Positions 17,908 to 28,531 are shown, counted from the stretch's first letter. The stretch is 64,000 nucleotides of DNA from Spirochaetia bacterium (GCA_963675665.1 OY776510.1:3424001-3488000); one strand, 5' to 3'. Translations and numbers: made by a program. Notes: generated by a model from the sequence alone, not told the origin.

Positions 17908-18892
17908 TTCCCGGCTGCGCAAAGTATTTATTAAGCATATCTAACACTTTTACCTTGATTTCTTCAAGTGGGTATTTGCTTTTAAATCCTGCCGCGGTTT
18001 TATGACCTCCGCCGTTATAAATCTGGGCAATGAATGCTACGTCAATATTACCCTTTGAACGGAGAGAACAACGGAGGATGCCTTCAAGATTTTCCTTGAA
18101 AAAAACCGATACTTTGATCTCTTCACTTTTAAGAGGAATATTAATAAGAGAATCAGCTTCTTCATAAAGGGCGCCGCTCTCAATAATATCTTCTTTGCGC
18201 ATTGTCTGAACAGCAACATGATTGTCATAGAAGAACTCAAGAGTTGAAAGAACTTTGGACTGAAGCATAAGCGATGATATTGAATTGCTCTCATAAAGTT
18301 TTGAGTAAATGAAATTCGGGTTAACTCCGAGTCTTACACATGATTCTGCGATTGAGAAAGTCCTTGCTGTTGTTTTGGGATAAATAAAAGAACCAGTGTC
18401 GTAGACAATGCCCAGATAGATTGCAACGGCCATCTCGTATGAAATTTCAATCTTCATTTCATTAAAAAGCTCAAACAGCATTTCGCATGTCGAGGAAGCT
18501 TCGCTTTCAATATGATTTGCTGTCGAAACCGAATCTCCGCCCTCGTGGTGATCGAAAATAAAATAGTTTTTTACTTTGGAAAGAACGTTTAATTTTATGG
18601 AACCGATATTGTTTATATCGTTTGTATCAAGAATGAGAAGCACCCAGTCGGATATATCATCAGGAAGCTGACTATCATCCTTGTAAAGTTCAATTATATT
18701 GTCGATATCAAGAAAATAATATTTTTCCGCCATAGGATCAGCATTAATTATCTTTATCGTTTTACCTAAAGTTTTTAGAGCAAGATATGCAGCAATCTCG
18801 CTGCCTATTGCGTCGCCGTCAGGGGTTTCATGTGCAGTGAGAATGAACTTGTCATGATTATTAATAAAATCAGCTATCGCTTGAAATCTCAT
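17900..18892 (-). CDS. DHH/DHHA1 phosphoesterase (NrnA-like oligoribonuclease/pAp phosphatase)
   Basis: HETPDGDAIGS, LDT, DHH, YDTGSF, SLRS, GGGHKTAAG. Confidence 0.9.
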   Translation of the reverse strand: MRFQAIADFINNHDKFILTAHETPDGDAIGSEIAAYLALKTLGKTIKIINADPMAEKYYFLDIDNIIELYKDDSQLPDDISDWVLLILDTNDINNIGSIKLNVLSKVKNYFIFDHHEGGDSVSTANHIESEASSTCEMLFELFNEMKIEISYEMAVAIYLGIVYDTGSFIYPKTTARTFSIAESCVRLGVNPNFIYSKLYESNSISSLMLQSKVLSTLEFFYDNHVAVQTMRKEDIIESGALYEEADSLINIPLKSEEIKVSVFFKENLEGILRCSLRSKGNIDVAFIAQIYNGGGHKTAAGFKSKYPLEEIKVKVLDMLNKYFAQPGND

Positions 18893-20051
18893 TAGTTTTA
18901 TTTTTTTTCCTTTCATCGTCGTCTTTATGCAGAATAAGGTTCCTGATAAGTATAAAGGCTATTATACCTGCAATGACAAGAATTACTATAATAATTATAA
19001 GCCAATTGAATCCGCCGATCACGTCTTTTGATTCATTTTTTTCGTTTTTTATTACGTTTTCAGTTTTACTGGCTATTTCAGAATTCTTCTCCGAACCCAA
19101 GTTACAGGAAAAGACAGCCGGAAGAAAGGGGGTGTCTCCTTCAAATTTGAAGATGACTGTACCATCAGTATTTTCAGGTATAATTCCGTTGAGCACTTCC
19201 GATGATAATGTGATATGAATATCGATTGAACTTTCAGGACTTATTGTAGTCGAGTATTTATTATCAAGCAGATGATAATTGCCGCTGCTGTTCTGGAATG
19301 TGATTTGTTCTATGATGACAGTCCTTTCCGATACATAACCTTCGCTGGAAAGAGAAAGGCTTAGAACGCCCCTGGTAATTTCGAAATTATCTGCTGTTAC
19401 CCTGCCGATAATTTCCGACTGACTGATTGGCGGCGGGAGTTCACCGGTAAAATCAAGCGTTTTGTGTGTAGTCGCAAGTTCTTCGGCAAGTTCTTCTACG
19501 GCCGTATCTGTTCCAATCCCCAAAATCATAATTTTCCAGCCTTCGCGCTGAATGGTTTTTGTGTTTTCAAGAAATTTGTGATTAAAGCTGCCGTCCGGGG
19601 TGTAATAGGGACTTTCAGGTGGGGCTTCCTGTTTGCCGTCGGTCAGCAGGATAAGATATTTTCGGTCGAAACGCTGTTGCGTGTCGTTTACAGCAGAATC
19701 AAGCCTGTCAAGAGCATTTCCGATATCTGTAAACCGGCCGTCGGCAGGTATAGCCTTTATAGTATTCATTATGCTGTAAATATTATTTTCTTTGACTATG
19801 CCGTCAAATACAAGATCAGCGTTACCGTAGAACTGAATGAAAACAAGACGATCTCCGGGAATGAGAAAGTCGCTGATAAAATATTCGTTTATATAGGACG
19901 TAACATCATCGATCTCTTCTACCATGGATTTGCTTTTGTCAACGACCAGAAACAGTTCGATATTCTCTGTTCTGGTATCTGCCGAAACGGTAATGACATT
20001 TGCCAGTAATAGAAATAAAGCCGTTATTAAAATTGTAAATTTTTTATACAT
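18870..20051 (-). CDS. vWA-domain membrane protein (Tp0750-like)
   Basis: Signal peptide, MIDAS DKSKSM, TDIGNAL, LLTDG; C-terminal TM anchor. Confidence 0.8.
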   Translation of the reverse strand: MYKKFTILITALFLLLANVITVSADTRTENIELFLVVDKSKSMVEEIDDVTSYINEYFISDFLIPGDRLVFIQFYGNADLVFDGIVKENNIYSIMNTIKAIPADGRFTDIGNALDRLDSAVNDTQQRFDRKYLILLTDGKQEAPPESPYYTPDGSFNHKFLENTKTIQREGWKIMILGIGTDTAVEELAEELATTHKTLDFTGELPPPISQSEIIGRVTADNFEITRGVLSLSLSSEGYVSERTVIIEQITFQNSSGNYHLLDNKYSTTISPESSIDIHITLSSEVLNGIIPENTDGTVIFKFEGDTPFLPAVFSCNLGSEKNSEIASKTENVIKNEKNESKDVIGGFNWLIIIIVILVIAGIIAFILIRNLILHKDDDERKKNKTNEISSDS

Positions 20052-20193
20052 GCGTTTTCCTGTTAAAATAATAGTAACACGATGTTTTTTGATTAAAAAG
20101 CCTTAAAACTTATAAAAAAAAAAAAAACTTACTTTACATATCAGCATGGTTATTGATAATCTGTATACTGATAAAACTAGTAAGGAGAGTCAA

Positions 20194-22248
20194 ATGGGAA
20201 GCGTAGATTTACCAAAAAGTCCAATGGTATTCCACCCGGAAAAAAGAAGTGCGGTGGGTTCCAGGAACTCTCTTGCCCAGGAAAGCAGGGACCAACAGGC
20301 TGAAGTAGAACGGCTGCTTGAAGAAGAAGTCGACAAAGTAATAAACCATATGACAGCAAAATTACCCGATGAAGTTCTTTCAGAACTTGATGTAATGGGA
20401 GGTTTGAAAGAAAAGGTTTATAATTACTTCAACCAGAATTACCAGAACATGTTCAACCGTTATATTGTAACTGCTGAAGATGAAATGGTAAAAAAGGTAA
20501 GAAACTTCGTTGATAAAGAGGAAATGAAGGTTCTTACAAGATACACCCCGAAAGAAATAGCTACACTGCTTGAAGAAGTAGGTGGAATGGATCGCTTCAA
20601 TACCGGCGAAATTGAGAAATCAATTGTAAACATGTACGGACACCTGCAGGGACATATACAGCGTGGTATGAATGATCTTGAAAACCTGACCAATTCACTG
20701 CTGAGACAAAAAACGGATGTTGGTGCTTTTATCAGAGGCGAGAACGCGTATTCGGTTGTAAAATGTTCATTCAAGGACAGTATTCAGAAACCTAAAACTG
20801 TATGCAACGTAAAACTGTCAGTCAATATTCTTGATTCGGAACTGATAAGTCCAATCTTTCATTATCAGGCAACTGTAGAGTATTTGATTAAGGATTTGAT
20901 TTCAAAACAGATTATCGATGCAATCGATAAGGAAATCGAAGTTTTCAAGGATGAAAGACTCGACAAGGGGCTTGAAGAATTAAACGACAGTGAAATAATC
21001 TTCACCAAGATGGGGAAGGTTGAAAACCACACATCCGATGATGTCAACAATGCAAAATCAGCACGGTACAGCTACATTTCAAAGAGCATAATGGAAAAGG
21101 TTGAAGGCCTTCGGGCCGAGATTGATCCTGAAGAATTCGATCCGCTTAATATCAGGGAAAATCTTAAAAAGATTATGGATATCGAGAATATTCGTAACAG
21201 AGGGTATAATACCGCCATTAACTCAATTACAAGTATTCTTGATACTTCAAAGATGGGTTATCAGTATATAGAGAACCTTAAAAATGCACGCGAGCTTGTA
21301 ATTCGTGAATACGAAGATACAGACGATGCAACTTTACCTGATGAACGTTACAAAATAAGAATGAAATACTACGATAATGCACAGCTCATCGAAGAAAGAA
21401 AAGCCTATGATGTACAGGTTAAATCTTTTGAGGTTGAAGTTGAACACATCTGGGACGTTCTTGAAATGGTATACGTAGACGGAAAGAGAATGAAAAGAGT
21501 CACTGACTTTGAAGATCTCTCTAAAATCTACAAAAACAAGGTTAAGAAAAAAATAAAGGTAAAAACCGGTGATCCGGTTTACGAAGATATAGAAAAAAGC
21601 TGGGATGAAGTATCTTTTGTAGATGCTGCTGAAACTGAAGTAGAAAAAATGAACAGGACTTATGTTTTCCAGAAAGATAAACTGCATAAGAAACTTGTTA
21701 TGATGAGAGAAAAACTTCAGGAGATGTACGGTTACAGGTATCCGGTTCAGAGAAGGGTAATGGAAGACAGACTGGCTTTTCTTACTTCTGAATTTGCGAA
21801 ATTTGATTACATCATTAATCCGTATCATATTCAGCCGGGACTCCTTCTTGATGTTGATATTACTTCAATAAAAAGAAAGAAAGCGACTCTGGACGGTATG
21901 GCTAATGTTCTCAATGAATTCCTGCACGGTGTTTCCAAAGGTTTTCAGGATGCAGCATTCGCAGCCTTCTCAAGAAGAAGATCGACCGTACGTGAAGATA
22001 TAGACATGAGCTTTTCATCAGATCTTGAAGAAGAAGATGCGGGGCACCAGCAGTCTTTGGGTTCATCATATCTTGATATGTTGAATGCGCCTGCAGAAAG
22101 CAGTCCTGCTGAAACAACAATTAAAGAAAAAGCACCGGCCAAAAAAACAAAAGCTAAATCTACTGCCAAATCAAAAGGCGTTGTGGATAATGATAAAACA
22201 AAAACTAGACGTGGCAGGCCCAGGAAGAGTAATTTGGATACTATCTGA
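20194..22248 (+). CDS. cfpA: Cytoplasmic filament protein CfpA
   Basis: N-terminus [29 protein letters not shown]...[26 protein letters not shown] matches treponemal CfpA as recalled; AAGGAG SD before ATG 20194. Confidence 0.93.
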
Positions 22249-22270: not shown

Positions 22271-22298
22271 AATCCCCTGTTGAGAAACAGGGGATTTT
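22271..22298 (+). terminator. Intrinsic terminator/stabilising hairpin after cfpA
   Basis: AATCCCCTGTT-GAGA-AACAGGGGATT followed by a short T run. Confidence 0.75.
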
Positions 22299-22316: not shown

Positions 22317-23318
22317 ATGAATAAAATACTTCGCGTTTATGATAACCTATCAAGCAGGCAGGGGTTTAATGACTCTTTGCTTCATTTTCAGTCTGTAATG
22401 GACATAATTTCTGATTTTGAAGAGGGATATAATCTTGCAGATATACTTAACAGTCTTTTATCTGCCAAAGATATTCAACAGGGGCAGGTAGCTTCAATTG
22501 TTTCGGCTCTTCTGAATGATAAATACGGCTATTACAGCAAATCCGGAAACCTTTCAGTAACAACACACGATTTTGAAACTATTAAATCGGAATTAAAAAA
22601 ACTAAAGGCATTTGATTCTGTTATATGCTATCACCATCCCGAATTGGGATATCTTGTTATTAATCCAAAAAATGAACAAAGCTGGGATGTAACCAACGAG
22701 TTGAGAAAAAATGAGTTTGTTACTGTTTTTGTAGGTACCTTTTCAGACGAGAAAAGAGAAAATGTTCCCAGGGACAAAGTAGCGGAAAAGATCTTTGAAA
22801 TAATAAACGGCAAGAAATCAGTTTTATCTGATGTTATGAAAAAGGGCAGTTATAAGTATACTCCTTATGAAGCTTATGAAGATGAAGAAGAGTATGAAGA
22901 TGAACAGGAATATGAAGATGAAACGGAACCGGATGAGGAAGTAGAAACAGTACAGCCTAAACAGGAGCCGCAAAAGAGCAGCGGATCACAAAAAATGACG
23001 CCGATGTATTCAGTTCCTGTTACCAACGAGTTGTTTCATAACGGTAATGTTGAGGCCTGGAAAAGAATTATTCAGAGTTACAATGCAAAAAATCCGAATC
23101 TTGAAGTACATATTTTTTATGATGGAGAGAGGATTTTAAATATCGCTTCGCTTTTCAAGTGGGGAAAAGTAAAACACGGCAGTGCTATTTTGTTTGCCGT
23201 AGCAGGGGATGATATAAAGGATGTAGCAAAACTTCAGAAATATTTGAAACAGGGTGCAAGTCATCAGTTCGAAGCTTTTCTGAAATTCCCTGTTAATACG
23301 GTAATAAATCTTTTCTAG
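22317..23318 (+). CDS. Conserved spirochaete protein (TP0747-like position) with acidic linker and C-terminal HPr-like domain
   Basis: GAGG SD and ATG 22317; C-terminus VPVTNELFH...YDGERILNIASLFKWGKVKHGSAILFAVAGDD follows the HPr pattern by eye. Confidence 0.6.
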   Translation: MNKILRVYDNLSSRQGFNDSLLHFQSVMDIISDFEEGYNLADILNSLLSAKDIQQGQVASIVSALLNDKYGYYSKSGNLSVTTHDFETIKSELKKLKAFDSVICYHHPELGYLVINPKNEQSWDVTNELRKNEFVTVFVGTFSDEKRENVPRDKVAEKIFEIINGKKSVLSDVMKKGSYKYTPYEAYEDEEEYEDEQEYEDETEPDEEVETVQPKQEPQKSSGSQKMTPMYSVPVTNELFHNGNVEAWKRIIQSYNAKNPNLEVHIFYDGERILNIASLFKWGKVKHGSAILFAVAGDDIKDVAKLQKYLKQGASHQFEAFLKFPVNTVINLF

Positions 23319-23334
23319 AAAAACGAGGAAAAAA

Positions 23335-25971
23335 ATGGATATAAAAGAAAATACATATTTTATCACTAATAAAGCTTCAGCGAAAAAAACACCTGATTCA
23401 AATAAAATAGGTATTAGGGGGCAGCACGCATATGATCTTATGAAAATGGGTCTTCCTGTAGTACCTGGATTTATTATTAATACGGTAGCTTCGCCGCGGC
23501 TGGAAAAAGAAGATGATCTGATTAGTATTTTTAAACCTTTTTTCGATTATTACCGTAAACTTTCAGGCAAGGTTTTTGACAGTGAAGACAACCCCATGCT
23601 TTTAAAGATTGTACTGAGTTCAAATCTTGCAATAGCTTCTTATCCGACGTTGCACAATTTCGGTCTTGCAGATAACACCTTTGAAGGTTTCAGCAAATAT
23701 GTTGGAAAAGATTTTGCAAACCATGAATTCCTGTTCATGCTGAACGGTCTTTTTCAGGTTGAATTGAGAATTGCTGAACTTCTTGAAGATAATAAAGCGA
23801 TCGACAGATACCGTAAAAATCTTAAAAAGCTGAAAGTTCTGAATTCCGAAGATAAAAAGGTTGATTATAACAAGATACTGGAAGGTTTCAAGAATGAACT
23901 TGAACCCGGTCTGTTTAAAAGCGCATCGGAACAGATGAAGATTGTGCTTAAAAGAGTAAGTTATCTGATTAAACTTGAAGATGTGGAAGACACAGGAGTT
24001 GCTATTCTTGTGCAGCCGATGGTATACGGCAATTACGGTAAAGACAGTTATTCGGGCTATTTTTCAACAAGAAACGCAATAACCGGAGATGCTGTTCTGG
24101 ATGGCGAGTTTTTCCAGAATAAATTCAATTCTGCCGAATCAACAGGAAAAGATATCAACAAGATTGACAGGAAATATCTTGATGAATTTAAAGAAATTGC
24201 AGTTAAGCTTGAAGATGAATATCGTGAAATCAGAAAAATAGGTTTCACTATTGAAAGCGGGCGATTATCGCTGATAAACCAGAATCCTGTAAATGAAAAA
24301 TCAACGAGAGCAGATATTAAACTGCTACTGGATCTTTACAATAACAAAACTATTGATCAGAAAGAAGTAATAACAGGTATCAAACCTTCGCAGCTAAACG
24401 AGTTGCTGCATCCGGTTATTGATATGAAATCAGTTCAGAATTTAAAGAAAATCGACGGCGGTATTTCCGGGGCTCCGGGGGCAACCATAGGAAGAGTCTT
24501 TTTCTCTACCGAGGCGCTTCTCGATGAGTTTAAAAATGCCAGACTTAATGATATGGACGACAGGCTTATACTTTGTCTGACTTCCAGTTTTGCAGAAGAC
24601 GTAAAGGCAATTGAAGTTTCATCGGGGGTCCTTTCTTCTGAGGGAGGCTATTCAGCTCATGCATCGGTAGTAGCACGTCAGTACGGGAAGGTTTCGCTTG
24701 TAAATCCCGCTATGAAAATCAGCGGAAATAAAGCGGTAATCGGTGATGTTACCATAAAAGAAGGCGATGTAATAACGTTGAATGTTCCGGACTTTGCCGC
24801 GCCGAGCATATATCTTGGCCAGGCAGGCCTGATACAACCGGATCCTGCAAAAAACGGTTTGATTGAATTTTCAAAAATTGTAAAGGAAAATATAGAAAAC
24901 TTTGAAATCAGGGCAAACTGCGACAAGGCAAACGACGCCAAGCTCGCGCTGGCGTTCGGAGCTGACGGTATAGGTCTCTGCAGAACAGAGCATATGTTTT
25001 TTGACGAGTCACGGATTAATGTTTTCAGAGAAATGATTTTTTCAGAGGATGACTCGAAAAGAAAAGCTGTTCTCAAGAAATTAAAAACAATGCAGAAAAA
25101 AGATTTTACCGATCTGCTGAGCGTAATGGCCGGCAAAGAGGTAAACATCCGACTGCTTGATGCTCCATTGCATGAATTTCTGCCCCATAATAAAGCAGAG
25201 ATAAAAGCTTTTTGTGATTATATGAAAAAATCAACGGGAAAGAGCTTTACCGAGAAAAATCTTCAGGAAAAATCGGAGAGTCTTAGGGAATTTAACCCGA
25301 TGCTCGGGCACCGCGGTTGCAGAATAGCAGTATCATACCCGGAAATATATCAAATGCAGGTTGAAGCCATATTTGAAGCTGCTTATGAGCTGCAGGCAAA
25401 GAAAATAGTTGTCAAACCGGAAATCATGGTGCCTTTGATTATGAATGAAGCAGAACTGAAGATGATTCTATACGGAAAGAAAATCGAAGGTTCGCAGTAT
25501 CCGGGTCTTCTTGAAGTAGAAAAGGAAATTCGCGAGAAGATGAAAGCCAAACCGCTAAAATTTAAAGTCGGAACGATGATTGAACTTCCTGCAGCCGCCC
25601 TGTCCGCCGGTAATATTGCGCGTTATGCTGAATTCTTTTCATTCGGTACAAATGATCTTACCCAGACTACACTTGGCCTTTCAAGAGATGATTTCACTTC
25701 TTTTATGCCTGATTACACCTTGTACGACATTATAAGCGGAAATCCTTTCAGAACACTTGAAAAGCCGGTAAAGGAACTTATTGCACGCGCTATACAGCGC
25801 GGAACAATAACAAGACCGGACTTGCTGAAAGGACTATGCGGCGAGCATGGAGCAGCCCCTGAAAATATAGATTTCTGTATCAATGTTGGGCTTGATTATG
25901 TTTCATGTTCTACATATTCGGTGCCTATTGCCGCATTATCCGCTGCACAGGCATTGATTAAAAGAAAATAG
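23335..25971 (+). CDS. Pyruvate phosphate dikinase-like PEP-utilising protein with degenerate nucleotide-binding domain
   Basis: Intact GGYSAHASVVAR, GIGLCRTEHM, IRLLD, NPMLGHRGCR, MIELP, SFGTNDLTQ, LCGEH; ATP-grasp motifs altered. Confidence 0.85.
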   Translation: MDIKENTYFITNKASAKKTPDSNKIGIRGQHAYDLMKMGLPVVPGFIINTVASPRLEKEDDLISIFKPFFDYYRKLSGKVFDSEDNPMLLKIVLSSNLAIASYPTLHNFGLADNTFEGFSKYVGKDFANHEFLFMLNGLFQVELRIAELLEDNKAIDRYRKNLKKLKVLNSEDKKVDYNKILEGFKNELEPGLFKSASEQMKIVLKRVSYLIKLEDVEDTGVAILVQPMVYGNYGKDSYSGYFSTRNAITGDAVLDGEFFQNKFNSAESTGKDINKIDRKYLDEFKEIAVKLEDEYREIRKIGFTIESGRLSLINQNPVNEKSTRADIKLLLDLYNNKTIDQKEVITGIKPSQLNELLHPVIDMKSVQNLKKIDGGISGAPGATIGRVFFSTEALLDEFKNARLNDMDDRLILCLTSSFAEDVKAIEVSSGVLSSEGGYSAHASVVARQYGKVSLVNPAMKISGNKAVIGDVTIKEGDVITLNVPDFAAPSIYLGQAGLIQPDPAKNGLIEFSKIVKENIENFEIRANCDKANDAKLALAFGADGIGLCRTEHMFFDESRINVFREMIFSEDDSKRKAVLKKLKTMQKKDFTDLLSVMAGKEVNIRLLDAPLHEFLPHNKAEIKAFCDYMKKSTGKSFTEKNLQEKSESLREFNPMLGHRGCRIAVSYPEIYQMQVEAIFEAAYELQAKKIVVKPEIMVPLIMNEAELKMILYGKKIEGSQYPGLLEVEKEIREKMKAKPLKFKVGTMIELPAAALSAGNIARYAEFFSFGTNDLTQTTLGLSRDDFTSFMPDYTLYDIISGNPFRTLEKPVKELIARAIQRGTITRPDLLKGLCGEHGAAPENIDFCINVGLDYVSCSTYSVPIAALSAAQALIKRK

Positions 25972-25984
25972 TCAGCTTTTTGAT

Positions 25985-26027
25985 AAAAAAAAGCCGGTTG
26001 TTAAAAGATGTTACAACCGGCTTTTTT
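25985..26027. terminator. Bidirectional intrinsic terminator
   Basis: A-run-GCCGGTTGT...ACAACCGGC-T-run between convergent genes. Confidence 0.85.
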
Positions 26028-26041
26028 GAATTTAAAATCGA

Positions 26042-26590
26042 TTAGAAAATGCTGAATTTTTTTATAGCCTCAATAACAAGTTTTGCTGCTTCCTGAGCGT
26101 CCCTTTTGGGAACCTGAGCTTCCCTGTTGAATGTTTGAACAAAAAAGAACTCAATTGTTTCAAAAACATCCGGAAGATTATAAAAACAAAGTGCGAAGTT
26201 AATACCGGTCGGTTTTAAAATTGTAAATGAAGAATAGGTGACAAGAGGTTCTTTCGGGACCATAATCTTGTACTGATTTTTGGCATTATGTATATTCAGT
26301 TCACTGAATCTGAAGGGGATGGAACTTCCATGTTCACGGGATACGGGCTCCACATATTTTCTTGAATACATGGTTGGTTCAACAAGAATGTACAGTTTGC
26401 AGCCGTCAGTCTGAAAAGTAATACCTTCGTCGCTTGCAGTAATATTTTTAACACCGCCGTAAGCAACAACTTCATATATAGAGTAAGGTGAATTATTCTT
26501 AAAAAAGGACGACACTATATAACCGCCGTCATGCGGAAGCTTACCTTCATGATAAGCCTGAAAAAGATCCAAAGCTTTTGTTTGAGCCAT
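26042..26590 (-). CDS. Hypothetical protein
   Basis: 182-aa ORF with GGAGG SD; no recognised motif. Confidence 0.7.
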   Translation of the reverse strand: MAQTKALDLFQAYHEGKLPHDGGYIVSSFFKNNSPYSIYEVVAYGGVKNITASDEGITFQTDGCKLYILVEPTMYSRKYVEPVSREHGSSIPFRFSELNIHNAKNQYKIMVPKEPLVTYSSFTILKPTGINFALCFYNLPDVFETIEFFFVQTFNREAQVPKRDAQEAAKLVIEAIKKFSIF

Positions 26591-26641: not shown

Positions 26642-28531
26642 TTATTTTTTTTTTGATTGTTCAGCCTTTTTACTGTACATCTCAGCCCATTCGATAAGAC
26701 CTTTCTTGCGGTAGATTACACTCATATTATAATAAACTCTTCGGTCGCTGATTCCGTTGTAAATGCATTTTTGAAAAACATTGAGAGCTTCTTCATCCAT
26801 ACCGTTTTTATAAAGGGTTACTCCGTAAACAAGAAGAAGGTCTACAGACGGTTTTTTGAAAGCCTCTATGGCGCTTTTCAGTAAAGGAAGAGTTTCAGAA
26901 TCTCTGCCTTCTTTTCTCATGCAGAAAAGAAGCAGTTTCAGATATTCCTCATTGAAAGGTGAATTTGAAAGCAGCTGTCGATAGAGAATCGATGCTTCCC
27001 TGTAAATTCCGGCCTTGCGGCAACAATATGCCAGCTTTTTAATGTAAAAAATTTCATTTGAGAGAGAAGCTATAATTCTATACTGGTCTGATGCAGTCCT
27101 GTAATCACCGTTTCTGACAAGCATTCCGGCGTAAAGAATCCTTCTTTCGGTATCATTTTCATAAAAAGAAAGATATTTCTTAAGTACTGGCAACAATGGT
27201 TTTCCGGCAGGTTCTGCCGATTCTATCAGTCCGTTCCAGGCATCGCTCAGACTGTTCTCAATTTTTAATGCATTTTTGAATGAACTGTAAGCGCGCAAAT
27301 AATCAGATACGGACATTTCACCATATCCTTTTGCTGTGAGCAGCCAGCCGTCTTTCTCTTTTTTTAAACGGTTTTCGACGGCGGGTTTCCAGGTATTATA
27401 ATCTTTGTTCAGCTTCCAGCTGCATAATATGCGGTAGTATTCCGCAAAATCATCGTCCGGATTCTTTATTTCGATTATATCAAGTTCGGAATCAACTCCT
27501 GAATAATCATTCTCAAGCCATCTTACTGATGCTCTGCCGTAATGCGGTTCTACGGTTTTTTTATTAATTTCTGAAGCACGGGTGAAATGATTATATGATT
27601 CTTCAAGCCTTCCGCTGTTTTTGAGACATTCGCCGGCAAGAAGATGCATGTCGTAAGTCCGTTCTTTTTTTAAAGAAGAAATTGCGTAATACAGGGCGGT
27701 GCTGTAATCTTTTTTTAGCCAGAAGGCGACGGCAAACGATTGCCCGGTATTATCCAGGGTGTTTAAAAAAGATTTTATTTCGTCCTGCTCTTTATATGTT
27801 GACAGTAATTCAAAGGCACTGTCGATATCACCGACCAGCATGTATAATTCAGCAAGAATGTTTTTTACAAGGGAATCTTCAGGTACAATACTCGCTGCAT
27901 AATATATATATTTGGCAGCTTTGACATATTCTTTTAATTCTTTATAGATTATGCCCGTATATAATTTTGTCGTAAGAGAAGTGAAACCTGAATCTTCAAG
28001 AAAAAGAAGCCCCTTTAAAGCTTTTTGGTAATTTTCATTCCTGAATTCCTTAAGAGATAAAACAAGAATGCTGTTTATATACATCGTATTGACTTTTTTG
28101 TTATTTGGTTCTTCAGCGATAGCTTTTGAAAGGTAATCTACAGCCTTTTCAGGACATCCGCAGCGCAGCATCGCATATCCAAGGTAGACAAGCGAAGGCG
28201 CAAAATCAGGTTTTAACCGCAAAGCCTCATTAAAGCAAGATGCGGCACGGTGGAATTTGCCTGTTGCTATGTAGGTTCTGCCGAGATAGAAATAACCTGC
28301 ACCGGATTTTGGAGCTTTTGTAATATAAAGCCTCAGAGAAATAATGGCGTCATCAAAATTTCCAAGCTCGTGGCAGGCACGTCCAAGGTAAAGCAGCGCT
28401 TCGGGTATATCATCCGAAAGATTTAAAACATTTCTGAGTTTTATTACGGCTGCCGCGTAATTGCGCCTGCGTCCGTCTTCGATTGCATTTTGGAATAAAT
28501 TATTAACCCTGTTTTTTGAATTTACCACCAA
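26642..28531 (-). CDS. Tetratricopeptide repeat protein (start may be GTG 28528)
   Basis: Many TPR units, e.g. ALLYLGRACHELG and GYFYLGRTYIATG. Confidence 0.85.
   Translation of the reverse strand: MVVNSKNRVNNLFQNAIEDGRRRNYAAAVIKLRNVLNLSDDIPEALLYLGRACHELGNFDDAIISLRLYITKAPKSGAGYFYLGRTYIATGKFHRAASCFNEALRLKPDFAPSLVYLGYAMLRCGCPEKAVDYLSKAIAEEPNNKKVNTMYINSILVLSLKEFRNENYQKALKGLLFLEDSGFTSLTTKLYTGIIYKELKEYVKAAKYIYYAASIVPEDSLVKNILAELYMLVGDIDSAFELLSTYKEQDEIKSFLNTLDNTGQSFAVAFWLKKDYSTALYYAISSLKKERTYDMHLLAGECLKNSGRLEESYNHFTRASEINKKTVEPHYGRASVRWLENDYSGVDSELDIIEIKNPDDDFAEYYRILCSWKLNKDYNTWKPAVENRLKKEKDGWLLTAKGYGEMSVSDYLRAYSSFKNALKIENSLSDAWNGLIESAEPAGKPLLPVLKKYLSFYENDTERRILYAGMLVRNGDYRTASDQYRIIASLSNEIFYIKKLAYCCRKAGIYREASILYRQLLSNSPFNEEYLKLLLFCMRKEGRDSETLPLLKSAIEAFKKPSVDLLLVYGVTLYKNGMDEEALNVFQKCIYNGISDRRVYYNMSVIYRKKGLIEWAEMYSKKAEQSKKK

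Follow-up and report, generated by a model that had tools for sequence, protein, structure and literature searches.

A cfpA-linked paralog of pyruvate phosphate dikinase and a protein with two predicted HPr-like folds form a conserved three-gene module in spirochaetes

We have analysed a 64,000-nucleotide window from the single-contig, 5.15-Mb genome of a Spirochaetia bacterium (GCA_963675665.1, OY776510.1:3424001-3488000, i.e. G000:C1:3424001-3488000); coordinates are those of the window unless a contig is named. Its + strand carries a unit of three genes, closed by hairpins at 25973-26027: cfpA, a gene for a 333-aa protein (hereafter, the partner) and a gene, called ppdkL here, for an 878-aa homolog of pyruvate phosphate dikinase (PPDK) at 23335-25971. 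It is firmly established that cfpA, the gene of the tandem HPr-fold protein and ppdkL constitute a conserved three-gene module of spirochaetes, and that ppdkL is a PPDK paralog in which the phosphoenolpyruvate (PEP) side and the catalytic histidine are intact and the N-terminal domain (N-domain) has been rebuilt under selection. Equally firm, at the level of structural models, is the prediction that the partner contains a pair of HPr-like folds and that, in the second of them, an invariant histidine stands where HPr has its active site. As to function, we tentatively propose a PEP-driven relay from His442 of ppdkL to His241 of the partner, with an output bearing on the CfpA filament; the phosphotransfer is the step that we infer. 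An initial annotation had read the last two genes as a non-canonical version of the Enzyme I/HPr relay of the phosphotransferase system (PTS), in which a dead ATP-grasp domain would serve for docking or regulation. The stretch that it had delimited, 22317-25971 (open reading frames 22317-23318 and 23335-25971), and its position for the His codon (CAT at 24658) are correct. It had overlooked the tight association with cfpA, the other HPr-like fold of the partner and the occurrence of canonical Enzyme I and HPr in these genomes. The features of the unit are as follows.

20146..22248, + strand: cfpA (cytoplasmic filament protein A), which opens the conserved module (NCBIfam NF040882, cfpA_ASD, 1183 bits against a cut-off of 500)
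22271..22296, + strand: terminator-like hairpin (inverted-repeat scan, 11 pairs; weak T tract) separating cfpA from the partner gene, possibly an attenuator
22317 (ATG)..23318 (stop), + strand: partner gene, encoding a 333-aa member of PF27497, with GAGG 9 nt upstream of the ATG
22530..22817, + strand: partner aa 72-167, predicted HPr-like fold 1 (beta-alpha-beta-beta-alpha-beta-alpha by DSSP)
22857..22991, + strand: partner aa 181-225, acidic, variable, disordered linker
22992..23315, + strand: partner aa 226-333, predicted HPr-like fold 2 (C-domain, 108 aa; AlphaFold2 and structure searches)
23037..23039, + strand: codon of His241 (CAT within TNELFHNGNVEAW), candidate phospho-acceptor directly before helix 1
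23335 (ATG)..25971 (stop), + strand: ppdkL, 878-aa PPDK paralog, with its own GAGG and a start 16 nt past the partner stop
23335..24354, + strand: ppdkL aa 1-340, rebuilt ATP-grasp-derived N-domain
24355..24864, + strand: ppdkL aa 341-510, swivelling His domain and linkers
24658-24660, + strand: codon of the catalytic His442 (CAT, inside EGGYSAHASVVARQ), in the loop GGYSAHASVVAR
24865..25968, + strand: ppdkL aa 511-878, PEP/pyruvate domain, catalytic motifs intact
25973..26027, no strand assigned: terminator-like hairpins between ppdkL and a convergent 182-aa gene (scan and sequence reading)

Over its full length, ppdkL is colinear with the PPDK model TIGR01828 (residues 22-875 on model positions 15-865) and with the solved PPDKs, with E values of 1e-133 to 6e-190; for 2dik, the match has an E value of 1.8e-133 and places residues 23-877 on 2dik residues 16-872. 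The three domains, ATP-grasp, swivel His and PEP/pyruvate, follow one another as in PPDK. Such an alignment speaks for ppdkL being a working PPDK, as annotated for TP0746 and TDE0844, with a divergent but functional nucleotide site and an adjacency to cfpA that is mere gene order. We hold this to be quite unlikely. One argument against it is that ppdkL scores under the curated cut-offs: 633.2 bits for TIGR01828 (equivalog cut-off 843.45) and 20.3 bits for Pfam PPDK_N (gathering score 27), against 1317.8 and 186 bits for the canonical PPDK of the same genome. The corresponding values are 29 against 86 bits for Pfam PEP-utilizers, the mobile His domain, and 228 against 260 bits for PEP-utilizers_C, the PEP domain. 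The Enzyme I model TIGR01417 gives ppdkL 102.1 bits versus a cut-off of 341.7, its best stretch (model positions 348-530) covering the PEP domain only.

To locate the changes, 19 canonical spirochaete PPDKs (the genome's own and 18 others) were aligned with 73 ppdkL sequences, i.e. that of the window, 67 from related loci and five from ppdkL-only genomes (an unrelated 887-aa open reading frame, L087_10416, was dropped). A column invariant in the canonical set was counted as kept when its residue was present in at least 90% of the ppdkL sequences. By this count, ppdkL keeps 77 of 95 columns in the PEP domain, 16 of 36 in the His domain and linkers, and 23 of 109 in the N-domain. The phospho-His loop and the PEP/pyruvate motifs are thus preserved, as initially noted. 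His442 is invariant (48/48 sequences) and is the counterpart of the His of GGMTSHAAVVAR in the Clostridium symbiosum PPDK; its loop, GGYSAHASVVAR, has the pattern G-G-x-x-x-H-A-x-V-V-A-R. The PEP-domain motifs GLCRTEHMFF, RLLDAPLHEF, NPMLGHRGCR, GTMIELP, FGTNDLTQ and GLCGEHG show little or no variation in the ppdkL family, and the PEP/pyruvate-site motifs (Arg, Glu, Asn-Asp, Cys) are identical to those of C. symbiosum PPDK. As judged from the sequence, the residues needed for autophosphorylation on the swivel His are present.

The nucleotide side, which the initial annotation had rightly described as altered, is changed at 86 of the 109 canonical-invariant N-domain columns (residue numbers are those of the genome's own canonical PPDK). 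In all 73 ppdkL, Lys28 is replaced by Arg, Ser96 by Lys, Gly100 by Ser, Leu113 by His, Gln282 by Phe, Arg346 by Lys and Arg98 by Val or Ile; Arg141 has become Phe in 70 and Glu328 Arg in 65. The SMPGMM loop is gone, with a gap at Gly107 in 65/73. As to the QGEDVVAGIRTP motif, all 73 have another residue for Asp285, about one quarter keep Glu284, and the IRTP part is deleted; further on, Asp326 is lost and Gln340 is changed to Asp, Glu or Asn. We take the altered positions to be the ATP, phosphate and Mg ligands of the C. symbiosum enzyme, presumably including its phosphate/Mg ligands Lys22, Arg92, Gly101-Met103, Arg135, Asp321, Glu323 and Gln335. What replaces them is a set of new family-specific invariants and not the product of decay, a point which also goes against the idea of a working PPDK.

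The ratio of nonsynonymous to synonymous substitution rates (dN/dS), calculated for the two pairs with unsaturated dS, was 0.030 and 0.073 for the N-domain, 0.026 and 0.075 for the His domain, and 0.043 and 0.053 for the PEP domain. Since the values for the N-domain are as low as those of the other domains, it must be maintained by purifying selection. A decaying remnant is rejected on this ground (0.03-0.07), and the qualification of the ATP-grasp domain as dead, which also disregards its own invariant residues, has to be withdrawn. Selection as strong as on the catalytic domains is compatible with a different role for the N-domain: the phosphoryl group of His442 could pass to a small non-nucleotide acceptor lodged there, for example orthophosphate, giving pyrophosphate (PPi) for the PPi-dependent glycolysis of spirochaetes, or another anion, while the partner would be an adaptor or regulator linking the enzyme to the filament and not a phosphocarrier. 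The invariant basic or aromatic residues gained where acidic Mg ligands stood (Ser96Lys in 73/73, Glu328Arg in 65/73 and Leu113His in 73/73) fit such a pocket. The data name no acceptor, and we regard this explanation as unlikely for this and further reasons given below.

The second component, the partner, has 3026 relatives at E ≤ 1e-3, the named ones among the matches listed being spirochaete 'hypothetical proteins'; a precomputed database label, PF27497.1, is attached to the partner of the window and to all 120 relatives listed. AlphaFold2 (AF2) modelling of the full protein from a 42-row alignment gave a predicted local distance difference test score (pLDDT) of 81, and the following layout: a helical start, a domain at 72-167, a disordered acidic linker, a domain at about 226-318 and two short helices. 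The linker falls below a pLDDT of 50 at residues 190-217 and varies in length and sequence; its dN/dS is 0.18-0.55, whereas the only comparison of flanking domains in which dS is unsaturated gives 0.10 or less. When the C-domain was refolded by itself from a 43-row alignment of greater diversity, the pLDDT was 94.2 and the predicted template-modelling score 0.88.

Structure searches with the C-domain model were headed by HPr and Crh. With Foldseek, the first 28 rows listed (ranks 1-30) were all HPr or Crh chains, with probabilities up to 1.00 and template-modelling scores up to 0.68, the best E value being 2.4e-3 (none reaches 1e-3). With VIA, rows 1-29 for the C-domain alone were again all HPr or Crh (Z 6.1-7.9, root-mean-square deviation (rmsd) 2.0-3.0 Å, 77-83 residues aligned); the best had Z 7.9 and rmsd 2.0 Å over 78/85 residues, and the best non-HPr fold was row 30, a GlmM domain (Z 6.1). 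A wide VIA search of 48,161 PDB representatives, independent of Foldseek, placed HPr first for both partner domains. Fold 1 matched E. coli HPr 9s8b_C (Z 7.3, rmsd 2.5 Å, 81/85 aligned), then 7ff5_A (Z 6.4), 1pch_A (Z 6.3) and the NPr 5t17 (Z 5.9); fold 2, taken from the full model, matched 1kkl_H (Z 7.1, rmsd 2.6 Å, 77/86 aligned); ferredoxin-like and other folds had Z values of at most 6.1. As Z values of 7-8 are, according to the tool's own note, typical of top hits for models without a true match, the fold call owes its weight to three other features: the top hits are exclusively HPr or Crh, HPr is covered in full, and two independent domains agree. The models support an HPr-like, open-faced beta-alpha-beta-beta-alpha-beta-alpha fold for the C-domain.

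At the sequence level, the relation to HPr is not demonstrable. The C-domain has no Pfam (E ≤ 0.1), NCBIfam or PDB sequence match; a scan of the genome with PF00381 detected three other places and not the partner gene; no HPr was among the hits of the C-domain profile (A2) in the PDB; and hhalign of the C-domain against 30 spirochaete HPr sequences gave non-significant probabilities of 2% and 5.5%. A match of the profile to a Phytophthora RxLR effector repeat (5zc3_B, E 1e-4; NELFHNGNVEAW...YP..V.IF) has a helical-repeat target and was discarded as a chance likeness of motif. Thus, of the HPr-like pattern which the initial annotation had seen in the C-terminal segment, the fold is supported (pLDDT 94.2, HPr and Crh as top matches) and the sequence pattern cannot be proved. 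The same annotation had named in advance a partner domain without the HPr fold as the outcome that would speak against it; the AF2 model shows a fold like that of HPr, and the spot equivalent to His15 is occupied by an invariant His.

That His is His241. In HPr, His15 caps helix 1; in the C-domain model, helix 1 starts at residue 17, right after His16 (= His241). Residues 2-91 of the model superpose on HPr 1-85, so that His241 matches His15 to within 1-2 residues. The C-domain is nearly frozen, with a mean column identity of 83% among 39 sequences, and His241 is invariant in these (39/39) and in all of the best 80 loci. Two runs of the C-domain, N12-K24 and L54-G63, are invariant; within the fold, they coincide in location with G13-P18 and K45-A55, the pair of patches conserved among 30 spirochaete HPr sequences. 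In fold 1, the loop equivalent to that of His15 has no conserved His, its residues varying across the partner alignment.

The genetic coupling of the three components was examined in two sets of genomes. At least 553 genomes encode a relative of the partner, and the related loci are the best 80 from GTDB genomes. In 79 of these, ppdkL comes after the partner gene, the single exception being a contig that stops 27 nt past the partner. Between the partner stop and the ppdkL start, the median distance is 15 nt (72 measurable loci). The pair is preceded by cfpA in 76; in three of the four loci without it, the contig leaves no room. The second set samples the class evenly with 201 genomes, all of 90% completeness or more; here, the N-domain of ppdkL was used as a query, and its scores are cleanly bimodal (orthologues at 102 bits or more, canonical PPDKs at 81 bits or less). 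This co-occurrence profile, which the initial annotation had called for in the case of ppdkL and the partner, gave 111 genomes with ppdkL, 109 with the partner C-domain, 108 with cfpA, and 108 with all three together. The three exceptions are at contig ends: ppdkL is at a contig start in G108 and G112, and there is no room for cfpA in G146. None of the module genes is found in the other 90 genomes.

Canonical PPDK, present in 150 of the 201 genomes, is distributed independently of this pattern. Among the 111 genomes with ppdkL, about 96 have it too, nine have a sub-cut-off match only and six, with fragmented assemblies, are unclear. A working PPDK would account poorly for these figures: ppdkL matches cfpA in 108/108 genomes, coexists with canonical PPDK in most cases, and is missing from the 90 module-free genomes, many of which have a canonical PPDK. 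The presence of ppdkL, we conclude, is supported as tracking that of cfpA and not carbon metabolism; this, the co-residence of canonical PPDK in about 96/111 genomes and the separate, old lineage described below agree with the initial view that ppdkL is not an ordinary glycolytic PPDK. Another candidate role, that of a substitute for a missing Enzyme I, was rejected: all five ppdkL-only genomes examined (G140 and four others), in all of which the order cfpA-partner-ppdkL is kept, have an Enzyme I-like gene, and G140 also has HPr. As a separate observation, genome G111 has a second copy of the C-domain (C20:24247-24570) and a second cfpA (C53:174738-176549), on contigs other than that of the main module.

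The depth of the lineage was gauged with five distant triads (L166, L168, L169, L171 and L172) found by a metagenome scan, with identities of about 40% for cfpA, about 32% for the partner and 32-35% for ppdkL. The distant ppdkL keeps the GGY(A/T)SHA loop, and the distant partner keeps NELFHYGNVEAW with His241 (5/5 triads), but not His287. The N-domain, to which the initial annotation had assigned a docking or regulatory role, shows little conservation across the clades: in the distant one it is more degenerate, being 17-19% identical to that of the window and undetected by Pfam PPDK_N. Near-invariant columns of the PEP domain are kept in both ppdkL clades in 77 cases out of 132; canonical near-invariant columns in which both clades have acquired one and the same new residue amount to 7/52 in the His domain, 2/135 in the N-domain and 2/132 in the PEP domain. 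In a quick maximum-likelihood tree rooted with the two Enzyme I genes of the genome, the two clades join (Shimodaira-Hasegawa-like approximate likelihood ratio test, 100), apart from the canonical PPDKs; long branches are flagged in this tree, and the careful search is unfinished. These comparisons support, from sequence, the view of ppdkL as a separate and old paralog lineage. For a pocket that holds a small-molecule acceptor, so low an identity between N-domains and only two shared derived positions out of 135 would be odd.

The C-domain also exists alone. A profile search of 1.84 billion representatives yielded 131 hits, from which 12 single-domain proteins (108-147 aa) were picked and aligned. 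Two have a His at the 241 position, most have one 1-3 residues off and two have none in the loop. The fold family therefore reaches beyond what the relay idea covers, and it is in the ppdkL-linked form that the His is fixed; no ppdkL or cfpA was seen near the stand-alone relatives in the readable loci (L150, L161, L162, L164 and L157). The existence of relatives without a fixed His suits a partner that is only an adaptor, with a small-molecule acceptor in the N-domain, but that explanation leaves unaccounted for both the extreme conservation of the His241 loop and the retention of the His in ppdkL-linked forms only. As to context, the stand-alone relatives in the readable loci (L150:3191-3577, L161:3781-4137, L164:5734-6279, L162 and L157) are directly preceded by a purH-like gene (AICARFT only, about 350-430 aa), and in L150 and L164 a ubiE-type methyltransferase gene lies downstream.

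One could go further and suppose that neither protein is catalytic, both being structural parts or assembly factors of the CfpA ribbon, with ppdkL a pseudoenzyme scaffold and the HPr folds interaction modules. The strict adjacency and co-inheritance with cfpA, the lack of a His in the first HPr-like domain and of a fixed one in the stand-alone relatives of the second would all agree with it. In a scaffold, however, there would be no reason to preserve 77/95 PEP-domain columns, the PEP-site residues Arg, Glu, Asn and Asp, the Cys of GLCGEHG or a catalytic His; nor would the His loop and 77/132 near-invariant PEP-domain columns be expected to survive even in the distant clade. We deem this possibility very improbable.

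The module extends to the treponemes. The 1.1-Mb single-contig genome G140 (99% complete), whose ppdkL nests with Treponema loci in the quick tree, has ppdkL as its only PPDK homolog (54% identical); neither pyruvate kinase nor canonical PPDK was found in it. Its ppdkL, at 810749-813376, spans positions 810772 and 811414, both of which are assigned to TP0746 'Ppdk' in a passage of PMC10013896. As the G140 gene encloses them, TP0746 of T. pallidum is very probably ppdkL. Metabolic reconstructions of T. pallidum, as presented in the same passage, treat TP0746 as an ATP-yielding PPDK, so that a working PPDK has the literature on its side, as well as the absence of any other PPDK or pyruvate kinase in G140. 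An alternative route may nevertheless be available there, G140 having a GTP-type PEP carboxykinase and the beta subunit of oxaloacetate decarboxylase as a possible bypass. A small-molecule acceptor would likewise offer G140 a nucleotide-free step from PEP to pyruvate. In T. denticola, TDE0842 (cfpA), TDE0843 and TDE0844 appear as repressed together in Table 5 of PMC3914990. A T. pallidum yeast two-hybrid study (PMC2386257, supplementary file 1) was uninformative: TP0747 as bait has five low-score preys, each with 93-285 partners, and TP0746 is absent from the file. Our literature search returned no paper on the function of TP0747, TDE0843 or TDE0844, on a PPDK-like paralog, or on PF27497; passages of PMC1665464 contained nothing of relevance, and those of PMC5371819 did not list the nucleotide ligands.

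The mechanism that we propose, with the reserve already expressed, would run as follows. His442 of ppdkL would take the phosphoryl group of PEP, with release of pyruvate. The enzyme would no longer hand this group to a nucleotide in the manner of PPDK; the likeliest acceptor would be His241, in the second HPr-like domain of the co-translated partner. The result would be a relay from His to His that resembles the PTS but has a PPDK, and not Enzyme I, as its chassis, and its output, either regulation or tethering, would concern the CfpA cytoplasmic filament rather than sugar uptake. We infer each of these steps: that PEP phosphorylates ppdkL, that the group moves on to His241 and that CfpA is affected in some way. 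They draw support from the intact PEP half, the rebuilt nucleotide side, the predicted HPr fold with His241 and the matching conserved patches, and also from the gene coupling, the retention of His241 in the distant triads, the concentration of shared derived residues in the His domain and the co-repression in T. denticola.

Several points weigh against the relay. The whole segment around His241 is invariant, hence the invariance of His241 itself is not specific. The context of this His is F-H-N-G-N instead of the x-R-P of HPr, there is no equivalent of Arg17 or Ser46, and the residue ahead of helix 2 is Asn or Asp; the HPr signature H-(A/T)-R-P is absent, while H15, R17, P18 and S46 are invariant in the spirochaete HPr sequences (n = 30). 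Stand-alone relatives without a fixed His imply that the fold family is not intrinsically a phosphocarrier one. The helical subdomain through which Enzyme I docks HPr has no equivalent in ppdkL, which is colinear with PPDK. Two hinge motifs, MV(F/Y)GN and TR(D/N)xxTGE, survive, so that ppdkL may still bind adenine nucleotides, and the retention of these adenine-hinge motifs is a further argument for a working PPDK. Canonical Enzyme I and HPr occur in the same genomes as the module, which therefore have no need for a second relay, and the lack of canonical PPDK and pyruvate kinase in G140 favours a metabolic PEP-to-pyruvate role. The Z values and the hhalign probabilities quoted above must be added to this list, as well as the fact that no experiment on the ppdkL or partner proteins of the module came out of the literature search. 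A single complex prediction, made without controls for full ppdkL (A4) and the C-domain (A2), gave ipSAE values of 0.02 and 0.00 and was used neither way.

Around the module, three genes, all on the - strand, are at their usual places in most of the best 80 loci.

18870-20051, - strand: vWA-domain protein with a C-terminal membrane helix (61/80 loci)
26042-26590, - strand: 182-aa protein, no family above threshold (57/80 loci)
26642-28531, - strand: 629-aa TPR protein (59/80 loci)

For the convergent 182-aa neighbour, Pfam gave no match, NCBIfam a sub-threshold one only (E 0.043) and the PDB nothing meaningful. No PTS sugar permease was seen among the genes neighbouring the module. The C-terminal tail of CfpA (window 22190-22245) is basic and carries R-G-R-P, an AT-hook-like motif. 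In one genome, the ppdkL frame at L057:6509-9127 (= G013:C61:6515-7519) contains one in-frame TAG near its 5' end, which could be a sequencing error, the sign of a later start or the mark of a broken copy. Elsewhere in the genome of the window, there are two full Enzyme I genes (583 and 585 aa) and two canonical HPr genes.

G000:C1:4636982-4638139 and 2765423-2766586: the two full Enzyme I genes
G000:C1:912444-912686 and 2762004-2762240: canonical HPr genes
G000:C1:1508422-1508565: HPr-like stretch within a 525-aa frame

The module is widespread in the class, with a partner in at least 553 genomes and all three genes in 108 of the 201 sampled, and it reaches the treponemes of syphilis and periodontitis; two of its three genes are without known function or probably misassigned. 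A rebuilt nucleotide site in TP0746 alters the expected energy balance of T. pallidum, an organism that is hard to study. In its broadest form, the proposal is that CfpA-filament spirochaetes have a second, PTS-like, PEP-fuelled phosphorelay that acts on the cytoskeleton, e.g. on filament assembly, on attachment to the membrane or chromosome, or on a division coupled to the glycolytic state; so extended, with the corollary that T. pallidum would have no true PPDK and that its PEP-to-pyruvate step and the ATP yield mapped on it would need revision, it is doubtful. Should it nevertheless be true, no earlier phosphotransfer system would have had a genetic link to an intermediate-filament-like cytoskeleton in bacteria, and PTS-like relays would clearly have evolved twice, the second time from PPDK.

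Among known systems, the closest to ppdkL is PPDK itself (EC 2.7.9.1; 1DIK, 1KBL and 2DIK of C. symbiosum), with which it shares domain order, length, His loop and PEP motifs, and with which it branches, away from Enzyme I, in the quick tree. It differs in its sub-cut-off scores, in the replacement of 86 of the 109 N-domain columns and the deletion of the IRTP loop, and in being always paired with an HPr-fold protein and cfpA, while canonical PPDK usually coexists. The pairs Enzyme I/HPr of the PTS, EI-Ntr/NPr included, likewise associate a PEP enzyme made of swivel His and PEP domains with an HPr-fold protein that has a His before helix 1; with no sugar permease among its neighbours, the module recalls the regulatory branch, PTS-Ntr. 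Unlike Enzyme I, ppdkL has a 340-aa ex-ATP-grasp domain and no helical HPr-docking subdomain, and unlike HPr, the partner is a 333-aa two-domain protein without a detectable HPr sequence signature. VadK (Rv1127c) of Mycobacterium tuberculosis reportedly retains the ATP-grasp and His domains and is devoid of the PEP domain, a truncation opposite to that of ppdkL, and it is not known to have an HPr-fold partner or a link to a filament. As a kinase which evolved from PPDK (PMC13400623), it provides a precedent for regulatory re-use. Rifampin phosphotransferase (PMC4844700) and other enzymes of the PEP-synthase/PPDK family in which one substrate domain has been exchanged follow the same logic, a swivelling phospho-His domain moving between two substrate-binding domains; these enzymes have kept the ATP donor and changed the acceptor domain, whereas ppdkL has kept the PEP side and changed the nucleotide side.

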